Positions 12,195 to 59,407 of a DNA stretch of 64,000 nt are shown piece by piece (the stretch's first letter is position 1; each line of letters opens with the position of its first letter). The position numbers and the translations under genes were made by a program. This stretch comes from an uncultured Gammaproteobacteria bacterium. Lineage in GTDB: Bacteria; Patescibacteriota; Microgenomatia; Levybacterales; UBA12049. The notes beneath the pieces are model-generated. The model was not told the origin of the DNA. It did no database searches and worked only from the letters and a program-made list of their open reading frames with translations. The stretch lies in contig CAZHKZ010000002.1 in assembly GCA_964533055.1 (NCBI GenBank), positions 8,129 through 72,128 of the forward strand, written 5' to 3'.

Positions 12195-12195
12195 G

Positions 12196-14470: not shown

Positions 14471-14475
14471 AGAGT

Positions 14476-16161: not shown

Positions 16162-16165
16162 TCAT

Positions 16166-17863: not shown

Positions 17864-17867
17864 TTTT

Positions 17868-31708: not shown

Positions 31709-33167
31709 TGTAATAATTCCAATCCTAGCATTCTTTTTTGAGATTTACCCTAGACTCATCAATAAAAAGATAGGTGTGGATATTTGGACACACCTTTTGT
31801 ACCTTAAAGAATATAAAAAACAAAAAGGTATACCAAATAATATTTCAGATGGGTTTATCATTCCTGGAGGCTATGATTATCCACCAATGTTTATAACATT
31901 GTTATCAAAGTTCTCTATTAGAATTGTTGAGAAATATGAATATCTCTTCTCTCCCTTTTTCGACTTGATACATCTTATAGCTATTTTCTTTATTACGTAT
32001 GTGATCACTGGTGATTTAGCAATGTCATTACTGACACAAGCACTCTATACTCTGACACCAATAATAATTCTTGAGAATTCAAGCGCAACACCTAGATCTC
32101 TTGGGTATCTATTATTTACGCTCTTATTTTTTTCAATTTTTAACTACACAAATAGTGGATATGAATTATTTTTGCTCTTAGCTATCTTATTCGGTTCACT
32201 AATTCTTCTTACACACAGATTCACAACACAGGGATTCTTAATTTATTCTATAGTGTTCTCGCTTGTTGAACTAAATCCTGTGTATATTGAAATTTTTCTT
32301 GGCTCGTTTCTTGGCGCAATTATCTTTTCAAAAGGATTTTATTTGAAGGTATTAGCTGGTCATATAGGAAATTTAAAATTTTGGTATAAAAATATCGAAT
32401 TTAGATTTTTCCATCAGATAAAAGGAGATTATAAATCTCATAAAAGTTCAGATTTCGTATTTAAAATCTACAATCAATTCATAAATATCCCCCCAGTTGT
32501 TCTTGCAGTAACAAATCCTTGGATATTATTTGTATTTCTGTCTATGCTTTTCTATTTTCCATCTGACCCTATTTTACAGAGGTTATTATTATGGATTATG
32601 ATCTCCTACGTTCTTGCGTTAGTTACTATTTGGGTTAAAAAACTTCGATTTTTAGGGGAGGGTCAAAGATATCTTGAGCTATCAGCTTTTCCATCTGCCT
32701 TCTTGGCAGCAAGATTTATACTTCAATATAGAGTGGATAATTTAACTCTTTCGATATATGGGCTAGCAACAATTGTGGGGATTTCCTCGCTTGTAACAAT
32801 CATTGTGATTCAGAGAAAAGCGATAATTAAGGACAGATTGCGAACACTCATTCCAGAGTTAGAGAATATGTATTTATATATCAAAAAAATGAAGAAAAGA
32901 CCAAGAATTCTTTGTATTCCTCATCAAATAACAACAAATACGATTTTTCATACTGGTGCTGATGTTTTTGTTAATGCAAATTATAGGGATATTGAAAAGA
33001 TCTCAGAGGCTTATCCGTTTTTTAGAGTGCCAATCAACAGTTTTATGAAGAAACATAAACTCGATCTAATTTTACTTAATGAAGAATATGCAAAAATCTC
33101 AGATTTAAAAATTAGAGGTTACAAAGTATTGAAGAGATTTGGGAATATCGTTCTGTTATCTATTTAG
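31671..33167 (+). CDS. Uncharacterized polytopic membrane protein (family B, copy 1)
   Basis: 498 aa with about 12 TM helices. Conserved motifs YPRLINKKIGVDIWTHLL, GGYDYPPMF, GEGQRYLELSAFPSAF and PRILCIPHQITTNTIFHTGADVFVNANY. The start could instead be the ATG at 31683. Confidence 0.55.
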   Translation: MLGIMITLLLIISVIIPILAFFFEIYPRLINKKIGVDIWTHLLYLKEYKKQKGIPNNISDGFIIPGGYDYPPMFITLLSKFSIRIVEKYEYLFSPFFDLIHLIAIFFITYVITGDLAMSLLTQALYTLTPIIILENSSATPRSLGYLLFTLLFFSIFNYTNSGYELFLLLAILFGSLILLTHRFTTQGFLIYSIVFSLVELNPVYIEIFLGSFLGAIIFSKGFYLKVLAGHIGNLKFWYKNIEFRFFHQIKGDYKSHKSSDFVFKIYNQFINIPPVVLAVTNPWILFVFLSMLFYFPSDPILQRLLLWIMISYVLALVTIWVKKLRFLGEGQRYLELSAFPSAFLAARFILQYRVDNLTLSIYGLATIVGISSLVTIIVIQRKAIIKDRLRTLIPELENMYLYIKKMKKRPRILCIPHQITTNTIFHTGADVFVNANYRDIEKISEAYPFFRVPINSFMKKHKLDLILLNEEYAKISDLKIRGYKVLKRFGNIVLLSI

Positions 33168-34662
33168 AAAGAGATACAAGCTTTACATCACCAGACTCGT
33201 ATACAACTTTCTTCTGTGATAGGCCCAGTTCTTTGAGCGTTGCAAAGCTTTCTTTTACAAGAGCGTGGGTTAGGTCATATTTCCTTGCTAGTTCATTAAT
33301 AGGCACCGTAAGTATCGGATATACCTCCTGCACTCTCATTAGGCCAGGATTGTCTGCATTTACAAATACTTGTGCTTTCGTGTGATAGATGGTCATTGTT
33401 GTGTTTTGGTGTGGAATACAGACTATTCTAGGCCTGGTATTTTGTTTATTAATAAAAGAAAAGACTTTTTCAAGGTCCGAAGTAATGCTTCTGTTTTTAT
33501 CCTTAATGACCCCCTTTATTTGGATGAATAAAATTACACTTAAATTAAGTAATAAAAGTAGGACAAATAAAACTTTAATCAGCAGTGAGAATGGACTTTT
33601 TAGTAGTTCGAAAAGAAGATATGAAGAAAGTATGGATGATGGAACAGTTGCCATCTCCATATATCTTTGTCCTTCTCCAATTGGCATGAGTTTTTTAGTT
33701 TTCAAAACTACAACACCCAGTACATAGAAAAATATTATCCAGGCTGACATTGCTTGATACAATGGGTTTTGGTGTAGCCAGCCTGCCTGAAACGATAGTA
33801 ATACGCCGAACCCAGACAGTGCCCAGGGATTGAGGCCAAATATAGCTACTGGAGAAAAAACAGACAAGAAAGTATATATTTTATTTACAAAATCAGTTTT
33901 TGTATTTTTTTTGATTACTCCTCTAATTTGATGTGCAAATCTATAATCAAGATTTTTTATCCAAAAATATATATTGAACATGTGTCCCTTCAACACTCTA
34001 ATGTAATATCCTCTTGTTGCTAACATTGCAATTGCAAATCCTAGAAGGAAGCTTTGCATAAAGACCCCGGTATTAAGCAAGAAGGTAAAGAATATTGCAA
34101 TAAATAAAAATGATTGAATAGCAAATCTGTGTGTTAGGAATAGAAGGGAGGTAAAGAGTACACCAAGAATATAAAAGAGAATATTGCCCTGAAAAACAAA
34201 TAATAATAGAGGGACTACTGCAAGTGAAAAATTAAAGTAACCAAGTGATCTTGGTGTAAGGTAGCTATTCTCAATTGCAATCATTGGTGTCAACATATAC
34301 ATTACTTGTGCTGTAAGTGCTAGTAGCTGATTTCCAGTCAGATAATATGCCAAGTAAAAAACGAAGATAACTTGAAGGGAGTCTATAAAGGGGGCAATGA
34401 TGCCCTGAATATGGAGCAATTTAGTTCTAGGTATAAATGATAATATTGTCGGGAATATCGGAGGATAGTCGAAGTATCCTTCAATTAAAAATTGGCCGCC
34501 TAATATTTTTGTAGGAATTCTATGATTATTTTTTCTAATATGGTCAGTTTCTAAAAGTCGAGTCCATACATCCACACCAAAGAGTTTATTAAATAATCTA
34601 GGATATGATTGGAGGATAAAGCTAAGTAAAGGAATGATGAGTGGTAATAATGCTTGTCCCAT
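33160..34662 (-). CDS. Uncharacterized polytopic membrane protein (family B, copy 2; inverted paralog of 31671-33167)
   Basis: 500 aa. Reads YPRLFNKLFGVDVWTRLL, GYFDYPPIF, GEGQRYMEMATVPSSI and PRIVCIPHQNTTMTIYHTKAQVFVNADN, aligning along the full length with copy 1. The two stop codons overlap convergently (8-nt overlap). Confidence 0.55.
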   Translation of the reverse strand: MGQALLPLIIPLLSFILQSYPRLFNKLFGVDVWTRLLETDHIRKNNHRIPTKILGGQFLIEGYFDYPPIFPTILSFIPRTKLLHIQGIIAPFIDSLQVIFVFYLAYYLTGNQLLALTAQVMYMLTPMIAIENSYLTPRSLGYFNFSLAVVPLLLFVFQGNILFYILGVLFTSLLFLTHRFAIQSFLFIAIFFTFLLNTGVFMQSFLLGFAIAMLATRGYYIRVLKGHMFNIYFWIKNLDYRFAHQIRGVIKKNTKTDFVNKIYTFLSVFSPVAIFGLNPWALSGFGVLLSFQAGWLHQNPLYQAMSAWIIFFYVLGVVVLKTKKLMPIGEGQRYMEMATVPSSILSSYLLFELLKSPFSLLIKVLFVLLLLLNLSVILFIQIKGVIKDKNRSITSDLEKVFSFINKQNTRPRIVCIPHQNTTMTIYHTKAQVFVNADNPGLMRVQEVYPILTVPINELARKYDLTHALVKESFATLKELGLSQKKVVYESGDVKLVSLSK

Positions 34663-37594: not shown

Positions 37595-39703
37595 ATGCGT
37601 AAAGCAATAACTCTTGTTTTTTTTGTTCTCCTCTCGATTCTATTTTATAGAAATATCTTCAATGGATATTTTCAATCTGATGAATGGTTTTACTTCTCAC
37701 AATTCTTGCCTATACTCAATGGATTAGGTGGCTTATACGTTGCTTTAATCAAAAGTATTACAGAAACCGGAGTAATATCGGGAGGTGGCCATATGACCCC
37801 AATATATACTTTAATTTGGTATCTGCATAATTTGTTTTTTAAATTAAATTACTTTCCATACATCTTCATCAGTGTTCTGGTTCATGGAGTGAATGGTGCA
37901 CTTCTTTTCTCGTGGGTGTATTCACTAACTAAACGCATCTCTATCTCTATGGTGGCAGGAATATTTTTTGTAACTAGCTTTGCTCATTTTCAAGCTGTTA
38001 CGTGGGTAATGGCATACATTCCTACGGTTTATTCAGTGTTCTTTTTATTAATTTCCCTACTGTTGCTCACTCAATCCCTTTCAGGGCAGTTGATAGGGAA
38101 AAGAAAATTAATAGCGTCATTGATCTTTCTTATTTTAGCCATCTTAACCAAGGAGACAGCAGTTGTCGGACTTGTCATCTATATAATGCTTATCTTAATC
38201 CTAAAAAAATCCTCATTTATTCCGCTTCTATTTAAATGGCTTGTTCCAATTAGTATTGCATATATTTTGTTTCGCTTCGTACTTTCAGCGGTTGTTGAAA
38301 GATCATCAGTTGCTTTACTAGATAAGCTGCCACCCTTAGATCTTAATATCTTTAGAGCAATTGTTTATCCTATTAGAATAATGGCGTTATCATTTGTGCC
38401 TGTGCCACAAATATTAAAATTATCTGACAACTTTAGTAAATTTGCATACCCATCATTTGATATTAATAGTGGTGCGCAGCAGCGAGTCATTCAGGGGCCA
38501 GTAAGTGACATCTTCCTACTATTATTTGGAGTATTAATCATCTTTACTGCGATAAAGATAGGAAGAGGGCGAAATTTGCATAGAAAAGAAATGTGGATTG
38601 TCTACATGAGCCTTGTGATTGTTCTAACCTGTGCATTGCCACTACTATTGATCTCAACGTATGCACCATGGTGGGGATTTTCAATTTTTATAGATCCGAG
38701 GCATATCTATATTGGGTCTATTGGTGCTGGAATACTGTTTGCATTCCTTTTTTCAACTATTAGCTCCTCACTTTCAAAGTATATTTCTAAAGGGGTAATA
38801 CATGGGCTTCTTTTTGTAATTTTACTAACATGGATGTGGGCAAATTACAACCTATTGCAAGCTCAAATTGCAGAGGATGTTAAGGTTGGAAGAATGAGGC
38901 AGACCGTTATAGCAAGTCTTTTAAATAGTGTCAAAGTATTGCCAGAAAATGCGATCTTTCTTGTTGAAAGCCAAAATTCTTATTATGGCTTTAGTCATAT
39001 TCCACCTTTCCAAACTAACTTAGGGCAAATAATAGCAGTACAGTATTTTAACAAAGGACAAATTGAAAAAGCTTTTGTAACAGACCTCTATTTCTCTAAA
39101 GGAATAGAAGTTCAAGGTGTTATTTCTCACGAGGGCCATAGTTTTGGATATTATTTTAATCAGAATGCATTATTGCGTGATATTCTTAATAAAAAGATTT
39201 TACCTCAAAATATTGTTGCATTTACATGGGATGAGAATACAAACACATTAAAAAACAATTCGATAGAAAAGAGAAAACTATATGCAGAATTCTCTTCAAC
39301 TGCAAAACTATTGCAGGACTGGACTAAAAAATCAGATAAGCTATTCTCATTTTCGTATCCAAAGGAGGCAGAGTTGAGCGAATTCCCTGGGCAATTGTAT
39401 AGTTATGAAATATCTAGTGTGATGGGTGGGGTTAAGATTGAAATTCTTCAGAAGAAAAAAGAAGATCCATTCCATGAATATATTGCAACTCAAATTGACA
39501 GTCGTGGGAATTTAATTCAGGATGACTTTTTGATAGATAACGCAATCAGATATGACGGTACACTTGTCACATATTTAAAATTAAAAAATTATGAAGAGTA
39601 TTTCGTTCCATTCTCATCTGGTGAGTACTATTTAAAGGTAACTTCAGACAATCCAGACAATAATGTGTTGGTAAAAGGTATTCTTAGCACTATATTTTTT
39701 TAA
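37595..39703 (+). CDS. Uncharacterized large membrane protein (N-terminal roughly 470-aa polytopic domain plus roughly 230-aa soluble C-terminal domain)
   Basis: 702 aa. The loop after TM1 contains FQSDEWFYFSQF, a possible GT-C D/E motif. No confident family. Confidence 0.5.
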   Translation: MRKAITLVFFVLLSILFYRNIFNGYFQSDEWFYFSQFLPILNGLGGLYVALIKSITETGVISGGGHMTPIYTLIWYLHNLFFKLNYFPYIFISVLVHGVNGALLFSWVYSLTKRISISMVAGIFFVTSFAHFQAVTWVMAYIPTVYSVFFLLISLLLLTQSLSGQLIGKRKLIASLIFLILAILTKETAVVGLVIYIMLILILKKSSFIPLLFKWLVPISIAYILFRFVLSAVVERSSVALLDKLPPLDLNIFRAIVYPIRIMALSFVPVPQILKLSDNFSKFAYPSFDINSGAQQRVIQGPVSDIFLLLFGVLIIFTAIKIGRGRNLHRKEMWIVYMSLVIVLTCALPLLLISTYAPWWGFSIFIDPRHIYIGSIGAGILFAFLFSTISSSLSKYISKGVIHGLLFVILLTWMWANYNLLQAQIAEDVKVGRMRQTVIASLLNSVKVLPENAIFLVESQNSYYGFSHIPPFQTNLGQIIAVQYFNKGQIEKAFVTDLYFSKGIEVQGVISHEGHSFGYYFNQNALLRDILNKKILPQNIVAFTWDENTNTLKNNSIEKRKLYAEFSSTAKLLQDWTKKSDKLFSFSYPKEAELSEFPGQLYSYEISSVMGGVKIEILQKKKEDPFHEYIATQIDSRGNLIQDDFLIDNAIRYDGTLVTYLKLKNYEEYFVPFSSGEYYLKVTSDNPDNNVLVKGILSTIFF

Positions 39704-39722
39704 ATGTATATGATAATAACTA

Positions 39723-40421
39723 TTGAGTAATAATTTTATGAAAAGTCACGAAAAAAATACTTTTGAAGAAAAATACTTCCAAGGTTGGTACAAAGCGGCA
39801 GTTGGTAATTTTGAGCCAACCGATTTAAGAATAGCTAAGAATTGGTTTTGGGCATGGCTTAAAAAAATTGAACAGTATCTTCCATTACAAAATGGAAAAG
39901 GTAAATCTGTTCTGGAAATTGGCTGCTCAATCGGTGCAGTTGCAAACCTTTTAGTTGAGAAAGGATTTGATGTGACGGCAACAGACATTTCTAAATATGC
40001 GGTTAAGAATGCAGGAAAATTAACTCCAAAAGCGAAATTTAAAGTTCTCGATATTGAGAATATTGGTTCTATTTCTAAATTATATAATTACGTTATCTGT
40101 TTTGAGGTGGTGGAACATCTTGTACATCCTGAGAAGGGTATTAGCAATATGTATAAGCTTTTGAAGAAAAACGGGTTTGTAATTATTTCAACACCATATC
40201 CATATTCATGGAACTATGGAGATCCAACGCATATTAGTGTTAAATATCCTATTGAATGGGTGCTGCTGCTTAGAAACGCTGGTTTTAGAGATATAAAGTA
40301 TTATAAATTTACCCTTATTCCCTTTTTCTATAGATTTTCGAAGTATTTTCAAATTATTATTCCATTTCACATCCAGATTCCAAAACTAAATTGCCCTATA
40401 ATCTTTATTGCTAAAAAGTGA
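39723..40421 (+). CDS. Class I SAM-dependent methyltransferase
   Basis: Reads VLEIGCSIGAVANLLVEKGFDVTATDIS ... YVICFEVVEHLVHPEKG. 232 aa. Several candidate ATGs exist at the 5' end. Confidence 0.7.
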   Translation: MSNNFMKSHEKNTFEEKYFQGWYKAAVGNFEPTDLRIAKNWFWAWLKKIEQYLPLQNGKGKSVLEIGCSIGAVANLLVEKGFDVTATDISKYAVKNAGKLTPKAKFKVLDIENIGSISKLYNYVICFEVVEHLVHPEKGISNMYKLLKKNGFVIISTPYPYSWNYGDPTHISVKYPIEWVLLLRNAGFRDIKYYKFTLIPFFYRFSKYFQIIIPFHIQIPKLNCPIIFIAKK

Positions 40422-43400
40422 AGAAGCAAACATATATTCACCTCCTCATTATTGTATCAATTGGTTTACTGCCACTGCTTTGGTTCACAAGTGGTACGTT
40501 AATTCTTGGGCATGATGCAGGTTTGCCATTTGACCCAATGACCCATTTTCTAGATAGGCTTTATGTCTGGACTCAGCGTTTTGGTATGGGATCAGACCAG
40601 AGTTCCGCATTGTTAGGAGCTGTTTTTATTCATGGAATAGAGGCTCTATTGAATCTACTTCCTATTTCTCTGCAGATGCAGCAGAAAATTCAGTTTGTTT
40701 TTTGGTTTACACTTCCTGGTATTACGATGTATATTTTTACATCAAAAATATGGCGAGAAAAGAAATATCTGCCAGTTGTAGCATCAATAATTTATATGCT
40801 GAACTACTACCTGCTACAGGGCTGGTTTATTGCTGAGAGGACTAAATTTTCGACATATGCTGCTCTACCATTAGTGATGTACTTCATATTAGTTTACTTG
40901 CAAAAAAAGATGAAGTTATTACCAGCTATTTTGGGAGCAGGGCTAACTCTGAGTATTTTGAATGGAGCCGGTAGTTTTCCCTTATATGGCGGATTATTGA
41001 TTGCAATCGGGATTAGTTATTTATTCATTTTATTTCTATCTCCTAATTTAAAGACACTTTTAAGGATATCCTACTTAAATGTAGGCGTTGGAGTAGTCTA
41101 TGTAATTTTAAATGCGTATTGGTTATTCCCATATCTTTCATATGTCACTAGTTTTTATGGTCGAGACCTGGCAATGGCCGGAGGACCAGATGGTGTATTA
41201 AATTGGGCATCCTATCTCACGCTTCACACAACATTTTTTAACCTTCTTTTCGGACAAGGTGTGCCGGACTGGTATTTGAACAAGTTTCATGCATATTCTG
41301 GAATCGTGTTGAGCAATTCATTTTTCTCTCTTTTTAGTGGATTACTATTACTATTCTTATCGATATCAGTAGTCGTCAAAAAATCTACTAAGGATAATTT
41401 TTATATTTTCCTTTTTTGGATTATAACTTTTGTCGCAATTATATTCTCAGCAGGACCAAGTTCTCCTTTTGGATTTATTTATGAGTTTTGCGTTAGGTAT
41501 GTTCCTGGTTTTGCCATGTTTAGAAGTTCTTATTACAAATTTAACTATGCAATGTGGTTTGGATTTAGTGTTTTGATCGCATTTTCTCTCGATCACATTT
41601 TGACATGGATTCACAAAACAATGAATACTAAGATTCTGGTAATTGTGTCTGCGTTATTATTCACTGGATATCTTGGGTATCACTATACAGTAATGACCGG
41701 AGGTTTTTTTGATTATAATCGTGAGCCAAATCATCAATTGAGTAATCGGATCACTGTCCCACAATATGTCTTCGATTTTGGTAAATGGGTGAATACACAG
41801 AATATTGATACTAGATATCTTATTTTGCCTGATATTAATGATTCAGGTTATATTTCATATAAGTGGGGATATTGGAGTTTGGCTACAATTAATAGTCTGC
41901 AAAACAGAAGTTCGTTTATTCAGAATAATTCATTAATGCCAGAGCGTGAACGTAGCGAAATTAAGCAGATGTCTCAGGCTCTTCTTAGTGGTGAGATAGA
42001 TAGTTTTCTAGATTATGCATCTCTTTTTGCAGTAGACAAAATTGTTCTTCAAAATGATGTTGACTGGGATAATTCATCTTGGATTTCTACCAATCCTGAA
42101 AATTATAGAAATATCATTGAGAGAAATAAAATCTTTAAGAAGGAACGGGAGTTTGGTAAATGGACTGTATATTCAATTGAAAATAGTAAAAGACTGCGTG
42201 TTTCAGCCTCGCCATCTGTTAGCTATCTTCAGGGCTCACTTCGAGATATAGTCTCTTTTAAGGACTTTGATGCTACAGTCCCACTCTATATTACAGGTGA
42301 ATCTGCACAGAAGGATTTATATTACTTGAATCAATCCAGCAACAAATATATCTCAGCAGATTGCATAGAGTGTGATGGTATTGAGACAGGTTACAAATTT
42401 GAATTTTTTAATCCAAAAATTTTGCCTAATTCACCTTTATATTTTCTTGTGAGGGAAAAGGAGGATAAAGTTGAAAAGAGTGCGAATGATTTTGAATCAA
42501 AAGTAAATTTCTACTTAACAACCGCTGATAGAAGAGCTATTGAAATTAAGTGGATGATGGATACAGGGGAGAAATCTGCCGTAGGCCCAACGATACTTCG
42601 TTATAAGAATAGTTTATCTTCACTTGAAAATTTAATTAATAAAGGTGGATCACCTTCTGATTTTGAGAAAAATAATTCTATTTTTCAGACAGTAAATGGC
42701 CATCTTCAAAAGCAACAAGAACTACTTGGATCTTTGGATGATGATTCAGTGCTTACTGAAGTATCTGGGAGATTAAACAAGCTTATCAGGACGACAGATA
42801 GATTAAAGTTTATAACCAGGCAGTTGAATCAGAAACGATTCATTATCAACGCTCCGATAGAGGACGTCTACAAGATATATGTAAAACACCCAAGTAACGA
42901 TTCGAAGTTAGACGTGCAATCGCCAATCTTGACCATAGACGGTGCCTCTCAGCTATTTGTAAGCCAAGAAGGTAGCTGGAGTAATTTTGGGGAGGTAGCC
43001 TTAAGTAAAGGTCAGCACAAGATCGAGCTAACTGAATCTACGATTAAGAATTTAGTAACAGAAAAAGCCACGTTTCCGTTCGGTGAGAGTGGGATTATGA
43101 GTAGTAATAATATACATACTTTTAATAACGCTAGTATAGGAAGGTGTATTGCCTTGCCTATTCCAGATCAGTCTGTAACAACTGATCAATCGTACCTAGT
43201 CTCATTTTCTTATAGAAATAATAATGGCCCGCTCGCATTAGTGGCTTTTGTAAGTCCAGATAAAAACCTCTCATCCCCCCATATTTTGGACACAAAGCTG
43301 AAGTCATCTAGTGAATGGTCATCATTTACCTATCTTGTGACACCTGCTGTAAAAAATACTACTTTCAATATTTGTAATCCAAATCAAGAGGGGGAGAAAG

Positions 43401-43840
43401 CCTCGAAGACTCGAGCCATAGCTGAAATATCACAAGTAAAGGTCGAGAGAATTACATATCCAAGTATTCTTTTGTTTAAAAAAAGAGATATCAGCGTGCT
43501 TGCAAATATAAAAACTTCCTATAAGAAGCTAGATCCAGTAACGTATAGCATAAGTACTTCAGGATCTACCGGGTCAGCCTCAATTGCAATGAGAGAGTAC
43601 TATGGTCAAAACTGGATTCTCTGTGATGAGAAGGAAATTTGCACATCCCCAAATGACAAATCGCATTTCGCGTCAGCAGGTTATGCAAATGGATGGTATT
43701 TTGAAGATGGGTTGTCGGGTAAGGTTACGCTTAGGTTTCAATCGCAGGGACTATATGTTAAAGGTGCCTTTTTGTCTATTATTGGCTATATAGTTTCAGC
43801 AATTATATTAATAATATGGAAAAGAAGAATAAAAAGTTAA
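40418..43840 (+). CDS. Giant membrane protein: N-terminal polytopic (GT-C-like) domain, roughly 700-aa extracytoplasmic region, C-terminal TM anchor (AftD-like architecture)
   Basis: 1140 aa with a GTG start overlapping the upstream TGA. About 12 TM helices in the first roughly 420 aa, then a long hydrophilic region. It ends ...ANGWYFEDGLSGKVTLRFQSQGLYVKGAFLSIIGYIVSAIILIIWKRRIKS, which includes a terminal TM helix. Confidence 0.55.
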   Translation: MKKQTYIHLLIIVSIGLLPLLWFTSGTLILGHDAGLPFDPMTHFLDRLYVWTQRFGMGSDQSSALLGAVFIHGIEALLNLLPISLQMQQKIQFVFWFTLPGITMYIFTSKIWREKKYLPVVASIIYMLNYYLLQGWFIAERTKFSTYAALPLVMYFILVYLQKKMKLLPAILGAGLTLSILNGAGSFPLYGGLLIAIGISYLFILFLSPNLKTLLRISYLNVGVGVVYVILNAYWLFPYLSYVTSFYGRDLAMAGGPDGVLNWASYLTLHTTFFNLLFGQGVPDWYLNKFHAYSGIVLSNSFFSLFSGLLLLFLSISVVVKKSTKDNFYIFLFWIITFVAIIFSAGPSSPFGFIYEFCVRYVPGFAMFRSSYYKFNYAMWFGFSVLIAFSLDHILTWIHKTMNTKILVIVSALLFTGYLGYHYTVMTGGFFDYNREPNHQLSNRITVPQYVFDFGKWVNTQNIDTRYLILPDINDSGYISYKWGYWSLATINSLQNRSSFIQNNSLMPERERSEIKQMSQALLSGEIDSFLDYASLFAVDKIVLQNDVDWDNSSWISTNPENYRNIIERNKIFKKEREFGKWTVYSIENSKRLRVSASPSVSYLQGSLRDIVSFKDFDATVPLYITGESAQKDLYYLNQSSNKYISADCIECDGIETGYKFEFFNPKILPNSPLYFLVREKEDKVEKSANDFESKVNFYLTTADRRAIEIKWMMDTGEKSAVGPTILRYKNSLSSLENLINKGGSPSDFEKNNSIFQTVNGHLQKQQELLGSLDDDSVLTEVSGRLNKLIRTTDRLKFITRQLNQKRFIINAPIEDVYKIYVKHPSNDSKLDVQSPILTIDGASQLFVSQEGSWSNFGEVALSKGQHKIELTESTIKNLVTEKATFPFGESGIMSSNNIHTFNNASIGRCIALPIPDQSVTTDQSYLVSFSYRNNNGPLALVAFVSPDKNLSSPHILDTKLKSSSEWSSFTYLVTPAVKNTTFNICNPNQEGEKASKTRAIAEISQVKVERITYPSILLFKKRDISVLANIKTSYKKLDPVTYSISTSGSTGSASIAMREYYGQNWILCDEKEICTSPNDKSHFASAGYANGWYFEDGLSGKVTLRFQSQGLYVKGAFLSIIGYIVSAIILIIWKRRIKS

Positions 43841-44211
43841 TAAATCAAAGTAATATTTTGATTAGAATCTTGTCTAAGGACAGCGTGCGACTATTGATCT
43901 TAGTCACTTTACTAGTGTTAACAATTATCTCAGGCAAGTTCCCCTACGTAAATCTGATTGCAAATCATTATTTCTATGGAATTGGAGTCGTGATGGTGCT
44001 TGCGTTGTTATTTTTTAAACAATACATTAATGAAAGGAGAAATAAGATTATACTAATTTGCGAAATTGTCATAGCAGTAATAGTCAAGATTATCGGGAAT
44101 CAACAGGTAGAAGATATAGTTGGTTTTATTTTATTCGTTACATTATTATTAATTGTAATACTTGGCATAGCATCGCAAAGAAGTAAGCTCGCTTTGTATT
44201 TGAAGAAATGA
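43816..44211 (+). CDS. Hypothetical small membrane protein
   Basis: 131 aa with 3 hydrophobic helices. It overlaps the end of the upstream gene by 25 nt, and the downstream gene is ATGA-coupled to it. Confidence 0.4.
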   Translation: MEKKNKKLINQSNILIRILSKDSVRLLILVTLLVLTIISGKFPYVNLIANHYFYGIGVVMVLALLFFKQYINERRNKIILICEIVIAVIVKIIGNQQVEDIVGFILFVTLLLIVILGIASQRSKLALYLKK

Positions 44212-46100
44212 ATACATTACTCAGGGGAGATTGGAGATTTTTTTGGCCAGAGAATCTCAATTATTTTATTGGATTTCCACAAGCATGGGATAGTAGTCTA
44301 AATACTGGCATTGGTCAGTCTGGAATCGCAACGCTTTGGATATCTGGATATCTTTATATAACTAATACATTGTCGCTACTAGGCCTATCTTGGACTATGA
44401 TCACATTGGTCTGTTGGATATTGCCAATTGTGTTGCTATGTTTTTTTGGTACCTACTCTCTCTTTAAGTATCTTTTTCCAGAACAGGGTAGATATGCATT
44501 TTTTGCAGGGATACTATACCTCTTTAATACCTATTTTCTATTAATTCTCTCAGGTGGACAGTTAGGCGTAGGATTAGCGTATTCAATATTTCCATTTACG
44601 ATATATTTCTTCCTAAAATTATTGGGGAACGTTTCAAGATATAATATTCTATGTTTTTCGTTAGTTTTCTCAGTACTTTTATTATTTGATTTGAGGTTTG
44701 CTTATATGTTCCTATTGGTTGCTCCAGTACTACTAATAGTTGGATTTAGAAAAGATTCAGTTAAATCCTATATTTACTCACTACCAATTATTGGAATAAT
44801 AGTTTTCCTTTTACATAGTTATTGGATAATTCCTTTGCAGATATTTAAGCCAACTGTAAATAAGGTTGTTTCTGGTGGTATTGAGGAGTTCAAATATTTT
44901 AGTTTTGCCGACTTCTCGCATGCATTAACATTTATTCATCCTAACTGGCCAAATAATATTTTTGGAAAAGTATCATTTCAAATTCCGCAATTTCTTCTCG
45001 TCCCATTATTAGCATTTTCCTCATATTTATTTCTTACAAAAAAGAATATGAAAAAGATTTTATGCTTAATGACTCTGCTATTTGTCGGTGTGTTTCTCGC
45101 AAAAGGTTCTACGGATCCGCTCCTCTTCGTAAATGATTTTATCTTTATGAATATTCCAGGAATGAGTCTATTTCGAGATCCAACAAAATTTTATGTATAT
45201 ATCTCAGTATCATTCTCTATGCTTCTTCCATTTGCTGCGTACCATATCTCCGAGTTGGTGGCTAAGAAATTCTCATCTGCAAGGCAATATCTTTTCTATA
45301 GCTTCATAATCGGTTGGTTATTATTACTTTTCTCTTCAGGGAATATAAAACTATTGCAATCATTTCTTCCAAGTCCTGTCCCTGATGACTATAGAGAGCT
45401 TACAAAATTTATTTCATCACAAGATCAGTCATTTAGAACATTTTGGGTGCCTCAGTGGCAAAGGTACGGATATTTTTCTCCAATTCATCCCGCTATAGGT
45501 AGAAATGAATTTATTGAAAATTCTTCTATATCATCTATTAAGAAATGGTTCGGACAGAAAGAAGCGGAGAAAACATTGATCGCTTCTGGAGTAAGATTCG
45601 TAATAGTCCCATTTGATTCTGAGAGTGAGATCTTTTTAACCGATAGGAAGTTCGATAAGAAAGTTTATCAAGATTTAGATACTTTCTTAAGTAAGGTCAC
45701 CTTCCTTGAAAATAGGCGCGCTTTTGGAAGGATAATTACCTATGAAGTCATAGATTCAAAGCCTAGAATTTGGGCGAACAATTCAAAGGTTAAGTTTTCA
45801 TACCTAGGTAATAACGGGTATTCACTAGAGGTAATGAATGGGAAAAAGGGAGAAACTATTCATTTTTCTGAAGGTTTTGACAATGGCTGGAGACTTATAG
45901 CTGATCAAGGAGAGGTAAATCCATTAAGGGATGGTAACTATTTTATGAAGTTTGAATTACCCAGTGATAGTGAGGAGCTAAAGTTGATTTATCGTCCTCA
46001 AAAACTTGTTGAAGTTCTCTCCATCATGAGTCTTGTCCTATTCATTGCTATGACATTCATTATCATAAGGGACAAAAAACTATTTAAATCTTCTAAGTAA
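44208..46100 (+). CDS. Large membrane protein, AftD/YfhO-like architecture (polytopic N-domain, extracytoplasmic domain, C-terminal TM anchor)
   Basis: 630 aa. The C-terminus DNGWRLIADQGEV...IYRPQKLVEVLSIMSLVLFIAMTFIIIRDKK parallels the xNGW...terminal-TM ending of the gene at 40418. Confidence 0.5.
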   Translation: MNTLLRGDWRFFWPENLNYFIGFPQAWDSSLNTGIGQSGIATLWISGYLYITNTLSLLGLSWTMITLVCWILPIVLLCFFGTYSLFKYLFPEQGRYAFFAGILYLFNTYFLLILSGGQLGVGLAYSIFPFTIYFFLKLLGNVSRYNILCFSLVFSVLLLFDLRFAYMFLLVAPVLLIVGFRKDSVKSYIYSLPIIGIIVFLLHSYWIIPLQIFKPTVNKVVSGGIEEFKYFSFADFSHALTFIHPNWPNNIFGKVSFQIPQFLLVPLLAFSSYLFLTKKNMKKILCLMTLLFVGVFLAKGSTDPLLFVNDFIFMNIPGMSLFRDPTKFYVYISVSFSMLLPFAAYHISELVAKKFSSARQYLFYSFIIGWLLLLFSSGNIKLLQSFLPSPVPDDYRELTKFISSQDQSFRTFWVPQWQRYGYFSPIHPAIGRNEFIENSSISSIKKWFGQKEAEKTLIASGVRFVIVPFDSESEIFLTDRKFDKKVYQDLDTFLSKVTFLENRRAFGRIITYEVIDSKPRIWANNSKVKFSYLGNNGYSLEVMNGKKGETIHFSEGFDNGWRLIADQGEVNPLRDGNYFMKFELPSDSEELKLIYRPQKLVEVLSIMSLVLFIAMTFIIIRDKKLFKSSK

Positions 46101-46136: not shown

Positions 46137-47069
46137 ATGATCAGTATCGTAGTCCCCGTATATAATGAGGAGGAGAGTCTCCAGGCATTTTATGATGAGT
46201 TGATCCTTCGTATCCCATCGTTTACCAAATCATATGAGGTTATTTTTGTAGATGATGGATCAACTGATGACTCCTTGAATATTCTTAAGAAATTAGCTCA
46301 AAAAGATAAGAATGTTAAGATATTTTCTCTCAGAAAAAATAGTGGCAAGGCAGAGGCTCTGACATTAGGCTTTCAGATGGCTAAGGGAAATGCAATTGTT
46401 ACTCTAGATGCAGATCTTCAAGATCAACCAAAAGAAATTCAGAAGCTTCTTTCACTGCAAAAAAATGGCGTGGATGTTGTCTGTGGCTGGAGAAAAGATC
46501 GTAAAGATAAATCCAAGATGAAGGTGATCTCGAAGATCTTTAACCTTTTAGTGCGTAAAGTCTTTGACATAAATATTCATGATTATAATTGCGGAATGAA
46601 ACTCTATACCTCTGAGGCAGCAAAAAGCCTGAGGTTGTATGGTGGGATGCATAGATTTATCCCAATCCTTGTGAGTGAGCAAGGCTTTAGTGTTGATGAA
46701 ATGCCAATAGAGCATGTACAACGTATGTTTGGCAAATCTAAATACGGCTTTTCAAAGATCTTCAAAGATGTTCCCGATATGTTCACTATGATATTTCTGA
46801 TGAAGTATCGCAAGCAGCCACTCCATTTCTTTGGCGCTATTGGTGGCGCAGTTTTTTCAGGTGGATTCGTTATTTTGTCTTATCTCACGCTCATTAAGCT
46901 CTTTTCAGGACAGTCTATCGGCGGGAGACCCCTTCTCTTTCTAGGAGTACTTCTTGTTGTAGTAGGTATACAAATCTTCTTTACTGGATTTCTAGCAGAG
47001 TTGATTATAAATATTTCGCAGAGAAATAGGCCAATATTGCCTCTTCGTTATAGTACTGATTCTCAATGA
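46137..47069 (+). CDS. GtrB/ArnC-like polyprenol-phosphate glycosyltransferase (GT2 with C-terminal TM helices)
   Basis: Reads ISIVVPVYNEEESLQAFYDEL...VIFVDDGSTDDS...NSGKAEALTLGFQMAKGNAIVTLDADLQDQP. Two C-terminal TM helices follow (FFGAIGGAVFSGGFVILSYL, LLFLGVLLVVVGIQIFF). Confidence 0.8.
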   Translation: MISIVVPVYNEEESLQAFYDELILRIPSFTKSYEVIFVDDGSTDDSLNILKKLAQKDKNVKIFSLRKNSGKAEALTLGFQMAKGNAIVTLDADLQDQPKEIQKLLSLQKNGVDVVCGWRKDRKDKSKMKVISKIFNLLVRKVFDINIHDYNCGMKLYTSEAAKSLRLYGGMHRFIPILVSEQGFSVDEMPIEHVQRMFGKSKYGFSKIFKDVPDMFTMIFLMKYRKQPLHFFGAIGGAVFSGGFVILSYLTLIKLFSGQSIGGRPLLFLGVLLVVVGIQIFFTGFLAELIINISQRNRPILPLRYSTDSQ

Positions 47070-47282: not shown

Positions 47283-47810
47283 ATGACAATTGGTATAGAT
47301 GTTTCACAGTTAGCATATCGGAATACTGGTGTTGCTAATTATCTCAAAAGCCTCCTGAACGCGCTGGTAAATGAGGACAATGATGTAAGGTACATCTTTT
47401 TTTTCTCAAGTCTACGTGGACAACTCGACGTATCAGATCTACCAAAAGGCCCGAACATTACTCTTAAGAAGTTTCCTTTCCCACCTGCGCTTCTTGCCCT
47501 TATTTGGAATAGGCTCCATATCCTGCCAATAGATTTGTTTATTGGTAAAGTCGATCTATTCTTGACATCAGACTGGACAGAGCCACCACTGAGAAACGGA
47601 AAAAAAGCGACAATACTTTATGACCTCATTGTCTATAAGAATCCAAATGAATCAGCAGATCTTATTGTTCAAAATCAGAAAAGAAAGCTACAATGGGTTA
47701 AGAAAGAGTCAGATCTAGTTTTTTGCATATCAGAGGCTACTAAGAATGACGCTCAAGAAGTACTGGGGATACATCCGGATAAAATGCATGTAATTTATCC
47801 AGGAATATAA
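47283..47810 (+). CDS. GT4 N-terminal domain only (truncated glycosyltransferase; possible pseudogene or stand-alone acceptor-domain protein)
   Basis: 175 aa starting MTIGIDVSQLAYRNTGVANY and ending ...KMHVIYPGI*. It aligns with residues 1-178 of the next gene (MIIGIDVNEAN...KVHVVYPGIKETM) and stops exactly at the boundary between the N- and C-terminal GT-B domains. Confidence 0.5.
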   Translation: MTIGIDVSQLAYRNTGVANYLKSLLNALVNEDNDVRYIFFFSSLRGQLDVSDLPKGPNITLKKFPFPPALLALIWNRLHILPIDLFIGKVDLFLTSDWTEPPLRNGKKATILYDLIVYKNPNESADLIVQNQKRKLQWVKKESDLVFCISEATKNDAQEVLGIHPDKMHVIYPGI

Positions 47811-47814
47811 AAGT

Positions 47815-48933
47815 ATGATAATTGGAATTGATGTAAATGAAGCAAATGTCGATCGAAAGGTTGGGATAAGTGAATATGTGTTCCAGCTTATGCGCCAGTT
47901 TAGCCATCTTGCATCAAAAGATATTGATTGGCAAGTCTATTTGAAGAATAACCCCTCAAAGGACTTCCCTGAGATGTCTGAGAAATGGGAATACAAAGTA
48001 TTTGGTCCTAAAAAATTCTGGACCCAATTTGCCCTTCCCCTAAAACTAGCTTTGACGAATAAAAAGCCAGATGTTTTTTTCTCACCAGGTCATTACTCTC
48101 CTCGATTCTCGCGAATTCCCAGAGTGATTTCTATCATGGATCTTGCTTTCCATCATTTTCCAGAGTATTTCACGACAAAGGATCTTGCCCAGCTTAAGTC
48201 GTGGACGAAATATTCCATACTTAAGGCAGATGCGATCATTACAATTAGCCAAGCAACTAAAGATGATATACTCAAGTTGTACGGTGTCAAAAGTGAAAAG
48301 GTTCACGTCGTTTATCCTGGAATTAAAGAAACTATGTCACTTGAGCCGCATATCTATCCTATGAAAGAATTAGAAAATAAATTTGGGATAACAAAGAAGT
48401 ATTTACTCTTTGTTGGTACTCTCCAGCCTCGTAAAAATATTAGACGCCTCATTGAAGCATTCTCAAAAGTTCATATAATCGATTCTGATTTGCAACTCGT
48501 TATTGTTGGAAGAAAAGGGTGGAAGTATGAAGAGATCCTTTCTGCTCCTGAGGAGTTTGGCGTGAAGGACTCTGTTGCGTTTCTAGATTTCGTCAAAGAT
48601 GAAGATCTCCAGATGCTTTATAAAGGAGCTCAGTGCTTTGTATGGCCTAGTCTATATGAGGGTTTTGGACTGCCAGTGCTTGAAGCAATGCAGTATGGAT
48701 GTCCAGTTATCACGAGCAATATTTCAAGTCTTCCAGAAGCGGGTGGAGATGCTGCTATCTATGTTGATCCTGAGAATGTCGATGATATTTCAGAGAAAAT
48801 TAAGAAAGTCTTGGAGGATAAAGAGCTGCGAGAAAGTATGATTAAAAAAGGGTATCAGCAAGTGAAAAAATTTAGTTGGGAAAAGGCTGCCAAAGAGACA
48901 CTTGAGATTATTAAGGAAGTTGTAAAAAAATGA
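47815..48933 (+). CDS. Family 4 (GT-B) glycosyltransferase
   Basis: Full length (372 aa). Reads KKYLLFVGTLQPRKN ... EGFGLPVLEAMQYGCPVITSNISSLPEAGGDAAIYVDP. Confidence 0.8.
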   Translation: MIIGIDVNEANVDRKVGISEYVFQLMRQFSHLASKDIDWQVYLKNNPSKDFPEMSEKWEYKVFGPKKFWTQFALPLKLALTNKKPDVFFSPGHYSPRFSRIPRVISIMDLAFHHFPEYFTTKDLAQLKSWTKYSILKADAIITISQATKDDILKLYGVKSEKVHVVYPGIKETMSLEPHIYPMKELENKFGITKKYLLFVGTLQPRKNIRRLIEAFSKVHIIDSDLQLVIVGRKGWKYEEILSAPEEFGVKDSVAFLDFVKDEDLQMLYKGAQCFVWPSLYEGFGLPVLEAMQYGCPVITSNISSLPEAGGDAAIYVDPENVDDISEKIKKVLEDKELRESMIKKGYQQVKKFSWEKAAKETLEIIKEVVKK

Positions 48934-49535: not shown

Positions 49536-50371
49536 TCATACTCTCATACAATACCTCAGAGCTCTTGAAGAAATGTCTTGAGTCGATCTACCTTCATCTT
49601 CAGGGTAAATTCGAGGTCATAGTCGTTGATAACGCATCCAAAGATGAAAGTGTCAAAATGGTCAAAGATACTTTCAAGAAAGTTCGCCTTATTGAGAATC
49701 CTCATAATTCGGGATTTGCCGGCGGGTGCAACTTGGGAGCTGCGAGTGCAAAGGGTGAGCATATCCTATTCCTTAACTCTGATGCTGAGGTAAAGGATAA
49801 TCCACTTCCAATTCTTCTTCAGACATTTAATGATCACGATAATGTTGCAGTAGTGGGTGGAATTTTGGAGAACTATAATGGCTCTCTTCAGCGATCGTTT
49901 GGCGATTTTTATACAATTCCCAATATTATCACCTTACTTTTTGTTGGTGAAAATGGAGAGCTCAAAAAATACACAGATGAAAAAGAAATGGAGACTGACT
50001 GGGTGAGTGGGGGATTTATGATGACTGATTCGGCGCATTTTAGGTCTGTTAAGGGCTTTAATGAGTCATACTTTATGTACATCGAAGATATGGATCTTTG
50101 TTATAGATTGCGAAAGAAGGGGCTGAAGGTATTTGTGAATCCAGATGCGCGTATTAAGCATCTAGGACAGGGTAGCTCGAACAAAGCATTTGCAATTATT
50201 CACATCTATATGGGGCTGCAGATTTTTTATCAACAGCAAAGAGGTATACTGGAATACTACACCGTCAAGCTGTTATTATTAGTGAAGGCAGTACTAGCAC
50301 TGATAGTAGGTCTCCTAACCTTGAGGAAAAATCTTATCTCGACATATTACAAAGCACTAAAAACTTTATGA
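49523..50371 (+). CDS. Family 2 glycosyltransferase
   Basis: Reads VSIVILSYNTSELLKKCLESI...VIVVDNASKDES...LFLNSDAEV...GGFMMTDSAHFRSVKGFNESYFMYIEDMDLCYRLRKKG. Confidence 0.8.
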   Translation: MVSIVILSYNTSELLKKCLESIYLHLQGKFEVIVVDNASKDESVKMVKDTFKKVRLIENPHNSGFAGGCNLGAASAKGEHILFLNSDAEVKDNPLPILLQTFNDHDNVAVVGGILENYNGSLQRSFGDFYTIPNIITLLFVGENGELKKYTDEKEMETDWVSGGFMMTDSAHFRSVKGFNESYFMYIEDMDLCYRLRKKGLKVFVNPDARIKHLGQGSSNKAFAIIHIYMGLQIFYQQQRGILEYYTVKLLLLVKAVLALIVGLLTLRKNLISTYYKALKTL

Positions 50372-53300
50372 AAATATTAAAATTTGCAAAGAATAATGTT
50401 TTTCTGTTACTCACTCTTTTTCTTTTGGCATTTATACCTCTCTACCCAAAGCTTCCATTAGTTGATATCACTAATACATGGGTGTATATTCGTATTGAGG
50501 ATGTGCTAGTTGCGCTTACTTGGATCACCTTTTTTATTCTATTTTGGCGTAAAAAGGCTACTCTCAAGACTCCGTTAACGTATCCAATTCTTATATTCTG
50601 GGCAGTTGGAGCGCTTGCAACAATTCATGGTGTTATCTTTCTCTTCCCGAAGATCTCAGGACTTTTCCCACACTTGGCTCTCCTTAATTTCCTGCGAAGA
50701 GTTGAGTACCTTTCGGTCTTTTTTCTTGCTTTTAATGCAATGAGAAATAAAAAGTTTGTGACACCACTTATCTTCACCCTGGCTATTACGATGATTGGGG
50801 TCTTTATTTATGGTGTTGGGCAGAAATTCTTGGCCTTTCCAGCATTCTTGACCATGAACGAAGAGTTCGCAAAGGGAATTCCGCTGCGACTATCTCAAGC
50901 AGCACGTATTCCATCTACCTTTGGTGGTCATTATGATCTTGCTGCTTACCTTACACTCCTTATTCCAATTATGGGTGCTATGGTTTTTGGCTTTAAGAGT
51001 TGGTATGCAAAGATATTTTTTCTATTAACTTCAGTGAGCGGTCTTATCTTGCTCCTCATGACTGCTTCTCGCGTCTCCTATGGCGTATATCTTGTCTCAA
51101 TTGTCTTCCTCCTTGTGCTTCAAAAGGGAAAAAAATTCATTATCCCAGTTGTAATATTAAGTCTTTTATTAATGAGATCATTTGATGGCATTTCTCAGAG
51201 ATTTGCAAGTACATTTCAGCAGGTTGACCTCGCAGTTGATTCAAGAACTGGCAAAGCAATAGGTGTTATCTCACAAGGCGGTCAAGATACGGGTAAGATC
51301 GTGATTGAAGATAAAGAATCAACTGGTGAAAGTCTTCCACAGGGCTCAAAATACATCAATTTCCCAAGCACATCAGGTAAACAGTTTGAATCAGAGATCC
51401 TCTTTAAAAAATTAGGGAGCAATGGTCAGGAAGGAATGATTATTAGTAAGACAGGGACTATCATCGTGAAGAAGGCATTTGCTTATGACGTTTCATTTAC
51501 GACTCGCTTCCAGGGTGAATGGCCACGAGCAATTGAAGCACTTCAGCGCAATCTACTACTGGGAAGTGGTTATTCATCCATCAATCTAGCAACTGACAAT
51601 AATTATCTGCGCATGCTCGGTGAGACAGGGATACTTGGATTTGGTGCTTTTATCATGATCTTTGTTATCGCGACTATTTATGCATGGCGAGTTCTCCCAT
51701 CCATAACTGATCGAAAGACAAGAAGTCTTGTTTATGGGGTGATGGCTGGCGTATTGGCGCTCTCTCTGAATGCTGTTCTAATTGATGTATTTGAGGCATC
51801 GAAAGTTGCTTTTGTTCTCTGGCTGATAATGGGTTCGACTCTGGGACTTGTCCATCTGTATCAAGAAAAAGCTGTAAATTATGGTAAAGAGCTGCTTCGC
51901 ATCATTACATCAATTCCAGTTCTGGTCGCAGGAATTGCAATCTCAGGATCAATTATATTTTGGTCAATGATCTCGAATTATTTTGTTGGAGACGACTTTA
52001 CTTGGCTTCGTTGGGCAGCAGATTGCTCATCTCTTGTTTCACAAGGTGGGCCAAAAGTTTGTGGTTCATTAATTGAGACTATTTTGAGCTTTTTTACTCA
52101 TTCTCAGGGATTTTTCTATCGACCTGGAACGAAGACATTTTTCTATCTGATGTACCCATTGTTTGAATTATTCCCAACACCATATCATGTTGTCTCCCTA
52201 ATGCTTCATCTTATAAGCACATCTTTACTTTTTTTCATCTTTAAAAAGATTTTAGGCAGTAAATTATGGGCATTTGCTGGAGCACTTCTATTTATGGTCC
52301 TAAGTGTTCACGCAGAGTCAATTTACTGGGTCTCAGTTACGGGGCATATGATAACAGCCGTACTTATCTTACTTGCACTGCTTGCATATATGTATTGGAT
52401 GGAGACGAAGAATCATCTCCTCTTTATACTGGCATGGATAAGCGTGCTTGTCTCTACCTTCTTTCATGAATATGGAGCGATGGGCTCATTAATTCTTATC
52501 GCCTACGATATATTTAATTCACAAAAAATTACTTTTAAGAATGTTTTAAAGAGGTGGCATTACCTTGTGCTTCTGGCTCCGATTGTCATCTACGCAGTCC
52601 TTCGGACTAATGCATCTAGCTTCGTAACAGGGGGAGATTATTCGTATAGCTTGACAAATCTTCCATTTAATTTTGCCGGTAATTTAGCAGGTTATTTCTT
52701 TGCGACGATTATTGGACCGGTCTTCAATCCTATTTATACAGCTGTGAGAATGTACGCAAATTCACATATTCCAGTAGCAGTATTAGCGATGGTAGCTATC
52801 CTAATCGGGGCTATATCACTCTTTTTAAGGGCAAAGAATGTGAGGGAGCATCTTTTTGATAAGCAGATCTTATTTGCACTTACATTCTTTGTTGTAGGAC
52901 TAATTCCATTCTTAGGTTTGGGCAATCTTTCTGATAGATATGTTTATCTTGCCTCGGTAGGCCTAGTACTTGCTGTGATTATTATTCTTAAAAAGACGCT
53001 TAATATGAAAAGTAGAAATGTAGTTGTTGGTGCAGTCGTATTAGGTATTATCTACGGCTTTACCCAGATCTTTCAGCTTTTTTCAATTAATTCTGATTGG
53101 AGACAGGCAGGGAGAACATCAAATAACGCGCTCGTCGCATTATCATATGCGTATGCTAATACCGGCGCTCTTTCCTCAAAGCCAATATTCTATTTTGTAA
53201 ATGTCCCGATTAAGTATGGCGATGCTTGGGTGTTCCCCGTTGGGCTTCAGGATGCGCTGTGGTTTTCTTTTCAAAATACGCCATTGGTGATTGTGCAAAC

Positions 53301-59406: not shown

Positions 59407-59407
59407 C

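Follow-up and report, generated by a model that had tools for sequence, protein, structure and literature searches.

We describe three consecutive genes, A, B and C, on a stretch of 64,000 nucleotides from an uncultured bacterium (assembly GCA_964533055.1, contig CAZHKZ010000002.1, positions 8,129 to 72,128 of the forward strand). The whole stretch is called the window, and all coordinates refer to it. The products of A and C are large membrane proteins, paralogous to each other, with the fold of a GT-C glycosyltransferase, and the closest structural relative of A is AftD, a cell-wall enzyme of mycobacteria (Rv0236c; AftD of M. abscessus; PDB 6W98, 6WBX and 6WBY). It is probable that both are glycosyltransferases of the AftD lineage (Pfam family PF11847) and that they add a polyprenyl-phosphate-linked sugar to a surface glycopolymer outside the membrane. 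B, encoded between them, is a small protein with four transmembrane (TM) helices that regularly accompanies A. The term AftD-like refers here to architecture, and not to arabinosyltransferase function or sugar specificity, because AftD is a routine top structural match for many Gram-positive GT-C enzymes (PMC8035078). The three genes are as follows.

40418..43840, + strand: gene A, GT-C glycosyltransferase of AftD-like type, 1140 aa, GTG start
43816..44211, + strand: gene B, 4-TM protein, companion of A, 131 aa
44208..46100, + strand: gene C, short paralogue of A, 630 aa

The open reading frames (ORFs) of 1140, 131 and 630 aa that an original prediction, made from the letters alone, had listed are present at these positions, including a small membrane protein between the two large ones. 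They are tightly packed. The GTG start of A overlaps the stop of an upstream methyltransferase gene (GTGA), the start codon of B lies 25 nt upstream of the end of A so that the two frames overlap, and B and C share an ATGA overlap. In the database there are 210 relatives of A, nearly all of 1110-1190 aa, and 466 relatives of C, mostly of 600-690 aa; in both families most are full-length. For comparison of gene order, 65 related genome loci were assembled. Because A and C have many mostly full-length relatives and the order is kept in other genomes, we take A, B and C to be real genes and not chance ORFs.

The layouts of A and C were obtained from hydropathy plus AlphaFold2 models (pLDDT 84.8 and pTM 0.79 for A; pLDDT 83.6 and pTM 0.85 for C). 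The invariant residues of A given below are those of a 28-sequence alignment with an overall identity of 28-50%. In A, about 11 TM helices occupy the sequence to residue ~427, a soluble region runs from 428 to 1107, and a single TM helix at 1108-1139 closes the C-terminus. Its parts map onto the window as follows.

40418..41698, + strand: A residues 1-427, transmembrane GT-C domain, about 11 TM helices (hydropathy, model and PF11847-matching homologues)
41699..42397, + strand: A residues 428-660, soluble alpha/beta 'GT-C' domain (GT-C_AftD Pfam match at 446-584, profile alignment to AftD 439-569)
42416..42805, + strand: A residues 667-796, five-helix bundle DUF5667 in the ectodomain (Pfam PF18915, model)
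42830..43417, + strand: A residues 805-1000, beta-rich region resembling carbohydrate-binding modules, with C910/C986 (model confidence lower here)
43418..43840, + strand: A residues 1001-1139 and stop, terminal beta-sandwich and TM anchor 1108-1139 (alignments, model)

The multi-TM domain of roughly 400 aa that was predicted to open each large protein is borne out, extending to about 427 in A and about 386 in C, and the hydrophilic region claimed at about 700 aa for A measures ~680. In the TM domain, the first outer loop carries the invariant residues G31-H32-D33, D46-R47, W51 and D60, and P363-G364-F365..F368-R369..K374-F375 is an invariant motif of a later loop. The soluble domain carries a further invariant set, P448, Y450, W457, P471, W483 and D547. 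The (A/D)NGW beta-rich segment expected ahead of the last TM helix reads 'YANGWYF' in A and 'FDNGWRL' in C. In A the NGW begins at 1091 (N1091 and W1093 are invariant) and lies inside the beta-sandwich just before the last helix; in the family profile, AftD residues 1198-1266 ('VNGWQQGW...') align with this terminal module.

The ectodomain of A had been proposed to hold carbohydrate-binding modules (CBMs). Its beta-domains do resemble CBMs, but no CBM Pfam family was detected there in the Pfam scan, and part of the region is instead a helical DUF5667 bundle: PF18915 matches residues 667-758 with an E of 5.4e-7 and 30.4 bits against a cutoff of 27, and the AlphaFold2 model has helices at 675-796. 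The ectodomain also contains C649-x-x-C652 (window 42362-42373) and the pair C910/C986, all invariant. Outside the cytoplasm they probably form disulfides or bind a metal, and AftD has not been described with counterparts of them.

The kinship of A to AftD is seen first in structure. In a Foldseek search of the PDB with A, the three AftD entries alone were strong matches (E 5e-19 to 5e-17, the best being 4.6e-19, with a TM-score of 0.42-0.48), and every match other than AftD had an E of about 1e-4 or worse. The identity of A to AftD is 10-13%. No single-sequence phmmer search of the PDB with A or C gave anything useful. With a profile of the 28 A sequences, AftD (6W98/6WBX) came first with a marginal E of 0.018. 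The alignment falls in three colinear stretches, which cover the first outer loop, the soluble GT-C domain and, at the C-terminal end, the beta-sandwich plus the last TM helix. All six residues of the invariant set in the soluble domain are identical in AftD in this profile alignment. The GT-C fold and AftD likeness advanced by the original prediction held in structure prediction, Foldseek and profile search, with an N-domain of about 11 TM helices joined to a soluble alpha/beta domain. The two findings named as fatal to it, absence of a GT-C fold or an ectodomain of a protease or adhesin family, were not made.

After AftD, the structural comparison of A listed STT3B (19.8), Pmt4 (19.3) and AftA (19.0), and then ALG12, AglB, PglB, ArnT and AftB. 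A and/or C might be thought to glycosylate proteins, such as S-layer, pilin or other surface proteins, in the manner of an oligosaccharyltransferase (OST) or of PMT enzymes. We consider this rather unlikely. The structural alignment of A to AftD covers 701 residues versus 437 for STT3B, and the NGW beta-sandwich, like the re-entrant TM helix at the C-terminus, is a trait of AftD and not of OST. The OST motif, searched for as WW[DE][YFW]G, occurs in 0 of 28 A-family and 0 of 32 C-family sequences. Finally, the CBM-like domains suggest that the acceptor is a glycan.

C is laid out like a reduced A. Its polytopic domain reaches to about residue 386; some 210 soluble residues follow, and then a C-terminal TM helix at 596-621, with 'DNGW' at 558-561 (NGW at 559) in a beta-sandwich directly ahead of that helix. 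When the A and C families were aligned to each other with hhalign, A 10-614 matched C 1-574 (99.9%, E 6e-36), and the C-terminal modules, A 1003-1140 and C 505-628, matched as well (99.5%, E 2e-22). From these alignments, C is read as A minus TM1 and minus the middle of the ectodomain (A ~615-1000). The invariant residues common to both are G31/G7, D33/D8, W51/W27 and G58/G34, together with the motif PGFxxFR(S/D)xxK(F/Y), which in C is P317-G318..F322-R323-D324..K327; D8 is invariant in the C family and aligns to D33 of A.

The N-domain of C is polytopic as predicted, except that it starts straight with the first extracytoplasmic loop, lacking the TM1 of A. Among the C-family N-termini, 25 of 32 begin just 3-8 residues before the invariant Asp, and a hydrophobic TM1 is kept in 3. 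Loss of TM1 is therefore a derived condition and typical of the C family. The putative catalytic loop of C would have to get outside as a 60-residue N-terminal tail, which is plausible from the sequence, and the tail is of low charge (2 K/R, 3 D/E). In both proteins the invariant polar residues sit in loops that the positive-inside rule would place on the outer side.

Since C has lost TM1, since A carries a large noncatalytic ectodomain, and since equivalents of the AftD residues D474/E475 are missing, it could be proposed that A and C are inactive scaffolds derived from GT-C enzymes, or glycan-binding anchors that, for example, tether a surface polymer. We give this very little credence. The first outer loop and the PGFxxFR..K loop have stayed invariant at 28-50% overall identity and are common to A and C, which is the pattern of an active site, and tight linkage to a donor synthase (see below) would not be expected of a scaffold.

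The AftD structure paper provides the background for judging the active site and the missing parts. It lists K39, D41, E251, K361 and D474 as essential active-site residues, and describes an ectodomain of three CBMs and a structural beta-sandwich. A re-entrant TM12 is then followed by TM13-16, a four-helix bundle that binds the phosphopantetheine of acyl carrier protein (ACP). According to the same paper, homologues of AftD occur in Actinobacteria only.

Assignment of A and C as active glycosyltransferases of the AftD/PF11847 lineage has several points against it. A itself scores 19.3 bits against PF11847 (GT-C_AftD, formerly DUF3367; E 2.9e-4, residues 446-584), below the gathering cutoff of 26, and C has no Pfam match of any kind. 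In the Hidden Markov Model (HMM) alignment, the essential D474/E475 of AftD align to the nonacidic L488/A489 of A, and in the extended alignment, which uses sequence only, D33 of A is offset by about 2 residues from the position of D41. C has neither TM1 nor a signal peptide, and its 60-residue tail must nevertheless cross the membrane. B has no similarity to GtrA, SMR or AftD TM13-16, and some A-type genes have no adjacent B. The sugar specificity is not readable from the sequence, and the whole case is computational, built on sequence comparison and predicted models.

The scan for DUF3367 that the original prediction called for was thus negative for C and below cutoff for A. Six of eight A homologues at 30-50% identity to A do pass the gathering score, with 30-48.7 bits over profile positions 9-547, and some A homologues are labelled 'DUF3367 domain-containing protein' at NCBI. 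On these sequence matches A would belong to the PF11847 lineage by transitivity and not directly. A precomputed PF11847 match is found in 3 of 120 C homologues, and the profile of the C family found nothing in the PDB. In the extended HMM alignment, the invariant R369 and K374 of A fall near the expected position of K361.

It does not follow from membership in this lineage that A is a true AftD orthologue, that is, an arabinofuranosyltransferase that uses decaprenyl-phospho-arabinofuranose (DPA) to branch an arabinan. We judge that highly improbable. The identity of 10-13% is low, D474/E475 are not conserved, and the ACP-binding bundle TM13-16 is absent from A. The Pfam scans, which took in nearly every ORF of 120 aa or more in the 64-kb window, showed none of the DPA pathway, neither a UbiA-type DPPR synthase/phosphoribosyltransferase nor DprE1/E2. 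The neighbouring gene for donor synthesis encodes a GT2 of the ArnC/GtrB type, and such enzymes draw on nucleotide sugars. To this is added that AftD is a generic top match for many GT-C enzymes that do not transfer arabinose (PMC8035078).

The small companion B has K/R-rich segments at its N-terminus, middle loop and C-terminus, so that by the positive-inside rule both ends are predicted to lie inside. A 43-sequence alignment of the B family has a mean column identity of 26%. At the outer end of TM1 is the motif P43-Y44-x-N46, in which the Pro is invariant and the Tyr and Asn are near-invariant. The deposited annotation apparently has only a 72-aa form of B (P0267, which covers 55% of the ORF at 100% identity); since the start of that form falls downstream of the motif, the ORF of 131 aa is to be preferred as gene model. 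A B-type gene stands straight after an A-type gene in 54 of 67 cases among the related loci, and in about 80% of loci translation of B is coupled to that of A.

Two identities were considered for B. As a flippase of the GtrA or SMR type it fails by family: the B family has no Pfam match, and GtrA (PF04138) and SMR were matched by 0 of 43 members at E <= 0.1. That rejects the assignment to these families and leaves a flippase function possible. The second identity is a detached version of AftD TM13-16. A ends after the equivalent of TM12, and the topology of B is what TM13-16 would require if detached. The B-family profile finds no relative in the PDB, AftD included, so this identity is unsupported, which is not the same as refuted. 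An exhaustive profile search gave 375 cluster representatives, the best 150 of which are all stand-alone proteins of 99-150 aa; no A-B fusion was found among these 150 or among 21 word-indexed matches. Long A homologues (1185-1322 aa) in the related loci have no B-like tail. We also considered whether the A-type proteins without a B might lack the C-terminal anchor, and rejected it, as their C-termini retain both NGW and the TM helix.

The parallel between B and TM13-16 is suggestive, and a flippase role for B is equally open. Our tentative proposal, which we would not favour over other roles, gives B one of two functions. It may be a membrane subunit that the enzyme cannot do without, a stand-alone counterpart of TM13-16 docking a cytoplasmic regulator or carrier, or else a member of a new family of flippases for lipid-linked sugars. 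With the TM1-less C, which would be unusual among GT-C enzymes in having a free N-terminal tail as its catalytic loop, B would then make up an architecture for glycan assembly outside the membrane that is specific to the candidate phyla radiation (CPR).

The distribution of the module is confined to one part of the CPR. All 65 related loci come from metagenome-assembled genomes (MAGs) of the Microgenomates type (Levy-, Roizman-, Davies-, Gottesman-, Woese- and Dojkabacteria), and the order of a membrane protein gene called D, the methyltransferase gene, A, B and often C recurs across Microgenomates. The window itself is placed in this group by the taxonomy of the homologues. Literature searches found no prior description tying AftD, DUF3367 or GT-C to the CPR. 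Many third-party annotation MAG records with Microgenomates-type loci are titled 'uncultured Gammaproteobacteria bacterium', which is almost certainly a placeholder or mislabel.

There are variations on the order. Tandem duplications give A-B-A-B in three loci (L005, L006 and L007) and A-A-B in three others (L024, L041 and L042). In a subgroup of Woese- and Gottesmanbacteria type (L052, L057, L059, L061-L063 and L066), A is shorter (893-1011 aa) and C comes immediately after it, the B gene being absent. In one 574-kb contig (L001), a divergent block at 13884-19993 separates the A-B pair from C. It encodes a DegT aminotransferase, a SIS isomerase, a GHMP kinase, a nucleotidyltransferase/epimerase fusion and a HAD-like hydrolase. 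This looks like a pathway to a nucleotide-activated heptose or modified sugar, and so hints at the sugar used in that genome.

The genes on either side of A, B and C are the following.

37595..39703, + strand: family D polytopic membrane protein, 702 aa, upstream of the methyltransferase-A pair; no Pfam match
39723..40421, + strand: S-adenosylmethionine-dependent methyltransferase, 232 aa (Pfam Methyltransf_23/11/12)
46137..47069, + strand: membrane-anchored GT2, 310 aa, polyprenyl-phosphate sugar synthase of the ArnC/GtrB/CsbB type (phmmer, NCBIfam, Pfam)

The GT2 begins 37 nt past the end of C. It matches PDB entries over its full length by phmmer (ArnC, E 2e-44; GtrB/sll0501, E 6.5e-31; Dol-P-Man synthase, E 6e-17), and also matches the NCBIfam models ArnC, PgfS and AglJ and the Pfam GT2 model. 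Among 45 related loci, 16 have such a GT2 within 1.5 kb downstream of C. The GT2 of the window probably supplies the lipid-linked sugar donor. On the upstream side, D is present in 44 related loci, and its profile aligns to that of the A family by hhalign (90%, E 1.6e-6, D 104-437 onto A 104-443). D is thus distantly related to the TM domain of A, and by this comparison it is probably another GT-C enzyme. Most related loci have an ORF of about 222-232 aa at the position of the methyltransferase; by strict BLAST adjacency the count is 26 of 63.

From these parts we infer the following scheme. The GT2 would charge polyprenyl phosphate with a sugar on the cytoplasmic face, and the product would then be flipped. 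A and C would act in a Microgenomates (CPR) bacterium, on the outer side of its cytoplasmic membrane, where they would move the sugar from the polyprenyl-phosphate donor onto a growing or finished surface glycopolymer made by the surrounding gene island. For catalysis the enzymes would rely on an invariant acidic residue in the first outer loop, D33 of A and D8 of C, and on the PGFxxFR..K loop. The 680-aa ectodomain of A, with its soluble GT-C domain, DUF5667 bundle, CBM-like domains and terminal beta-sandwich, may hold a long acceptor chain. Because C lacks these modules, its acceptor may be simpler or lie close to the membrane, or C may work together with A. B would serve as a membrane subunit of the enzyme or as the flippase of the donor.

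Nearly the whole 64 kb (window 1-62000), with almost all genes on the + strand, is one glycan-assembly island. About 12 of its products are membrane proteins of the GT-C type, among them A, C and D and at least 8 others. The island also holds at least 15 GT2/GT4 genes, a ManC-like nucleotidyltransferase, and DegT, GNAT and epimerase enzymes. The principal features outside the A, B and C region are listed here.

42-983 and 26683-27960: two Wzx-like MOP flippases, alternative flippase candidates to B
4679-6910: YfhO-family protein (E 8e-18)
10539-12194, 12175-13839, 18416-20077, 22516-24048 and 53488-54945: PMT_2 proteins
14476-16161 and 16166-17863: PTPS_related/DUF6541 proteins
50368-53481: 1037-aa fusion of an O-antigen-ligase/Wzy_C-like N-half (E 2.7e-6, short of the Pfam cutoff) and a second polytopic half
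59399-60073: Bac_transf initiating phosphoglycosyltransferase
60117-62054: DUF4012 protein

Three further observations concern the island itself. The 1037-aa protein closes a block that is kept in many related loci and consists of a protein of ~177 aa, a GT4 of ~375 aa, a hexapeptide acetyltransferase of ~190 aa and a GT2 of ~290 aa. In the window, a 175-aa ORF at 47283-47810 ('MTIGIDVSQ...') resembles only the N-terminal part of a GT4 and precedes a complete 372-aa GT4 at 47815-48933 ('MIIGIDVNE...'). Because the pair of ~177 and ~377 aa is conserved in related loci, the small member may be functional, as part of a split enzyme or as a half-GT4, rather than a pseudogene. Lastly, two polytopic paralogues, E at 31671-33167 (+ strand, 498 aa) and F at 33160-34662 (- strand, 500 aa), converge with an 8-nt 3' overlap. 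They align to each other by hhalign with an E of 3e-109, they belong to no Pfam or NCBIfam family, and several related Microgenomates loci contain the same convergent pair.

Members of the CPR (Patescibacteria) have genomes of ~1 Mb and live attached to host cells. To our knowledge, the chemistry of their envelope is essentially unknown. About 60 kb of the window given to glycan assembly, with about 12 GT-C-type enzymes, is a very large outlay for a CPR genome of that size. The AftD-like pair and its small partner form a Microgenomates-wide module and could mark a major surface polymer used in host attachment. With it, the AftD/PF11847 lineage is extended well beyond Actinobacteria. The natural 'minimal' variants, without the ACP-binding bundle or without TM1, could separate the parts of AftD needed for catalysis from those needed for regulation. 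Nothing is overturned: a GT-C enzyme with a GtrB-like synthase is a well-known scheme, and the enzyme assignment is well supported and unsurprising. The points of real interest are the role of B, the TM1-less paralogue C, and the sugar and acceptor.

Among known systems, STT3/PglB/AglB, PMT, ArnT, AftA/AftB and ALG9/12 align to A over shorter lengths (350-470 residues) and do not have the terminal beta-sandwich and TM anchor in common with it. AftD has these, with the 'NGW' beta-sandwich followed by a re-entrant TM helix, and it also shares with A the GT-C domain of about 11 TM helices, the soluble alpha/beta domain with the residues P, Y, W, P, W and D, and probably a beta-sandwich, CBM-like ectodomain. 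Unlike AftD, A and C stop after one C-terminal TM helix, without a TM13-16 bundle, and a separate 4-TM gene follows A. The ectodomain of A contains the five-helix DUF5667 insert, which is absent from the published domain list of AftD. The hosts of A are CPR/Microgenomates, A is accompanied by the TM1-less short paralogue C, and it lacks both the conserved D474/E475 and any DPA pathway genes nearby.

The organization of the module resembles that of established multicomponent systems of extracytoplasmic glycosylation, in which a membrane GT-A enzyme works with a GT-C enzyme, with or without a small flippase (GtrB/GtrA/Gtr* and CsbB/GtcA/YfhO; PMC8035078, PMC11127046). As in these, a membrane GT2 making a polyprenyl-phosphate sugar adjoins a GT-C enzyme with a big outer domain and a C-terminal TM helix, and a small 4-TM protein (B) is in the same operon. 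The original prediction had ascribed to A and C the architecture of both AftD and YfhO; the AftD half stands, but the YfhO Pfam model (PF09586) matches neither A nor C at E <= 1, with a precomputed match in 1 of 120 C homologues. Unlike the enzymes of those systems, A and C also have no PMT_2 Pfam match, and B is of the right size and TM count, but none of the 43 members of its family matches GtrA. The module further differs from those systems in having two paralogous GT-C enzymes.

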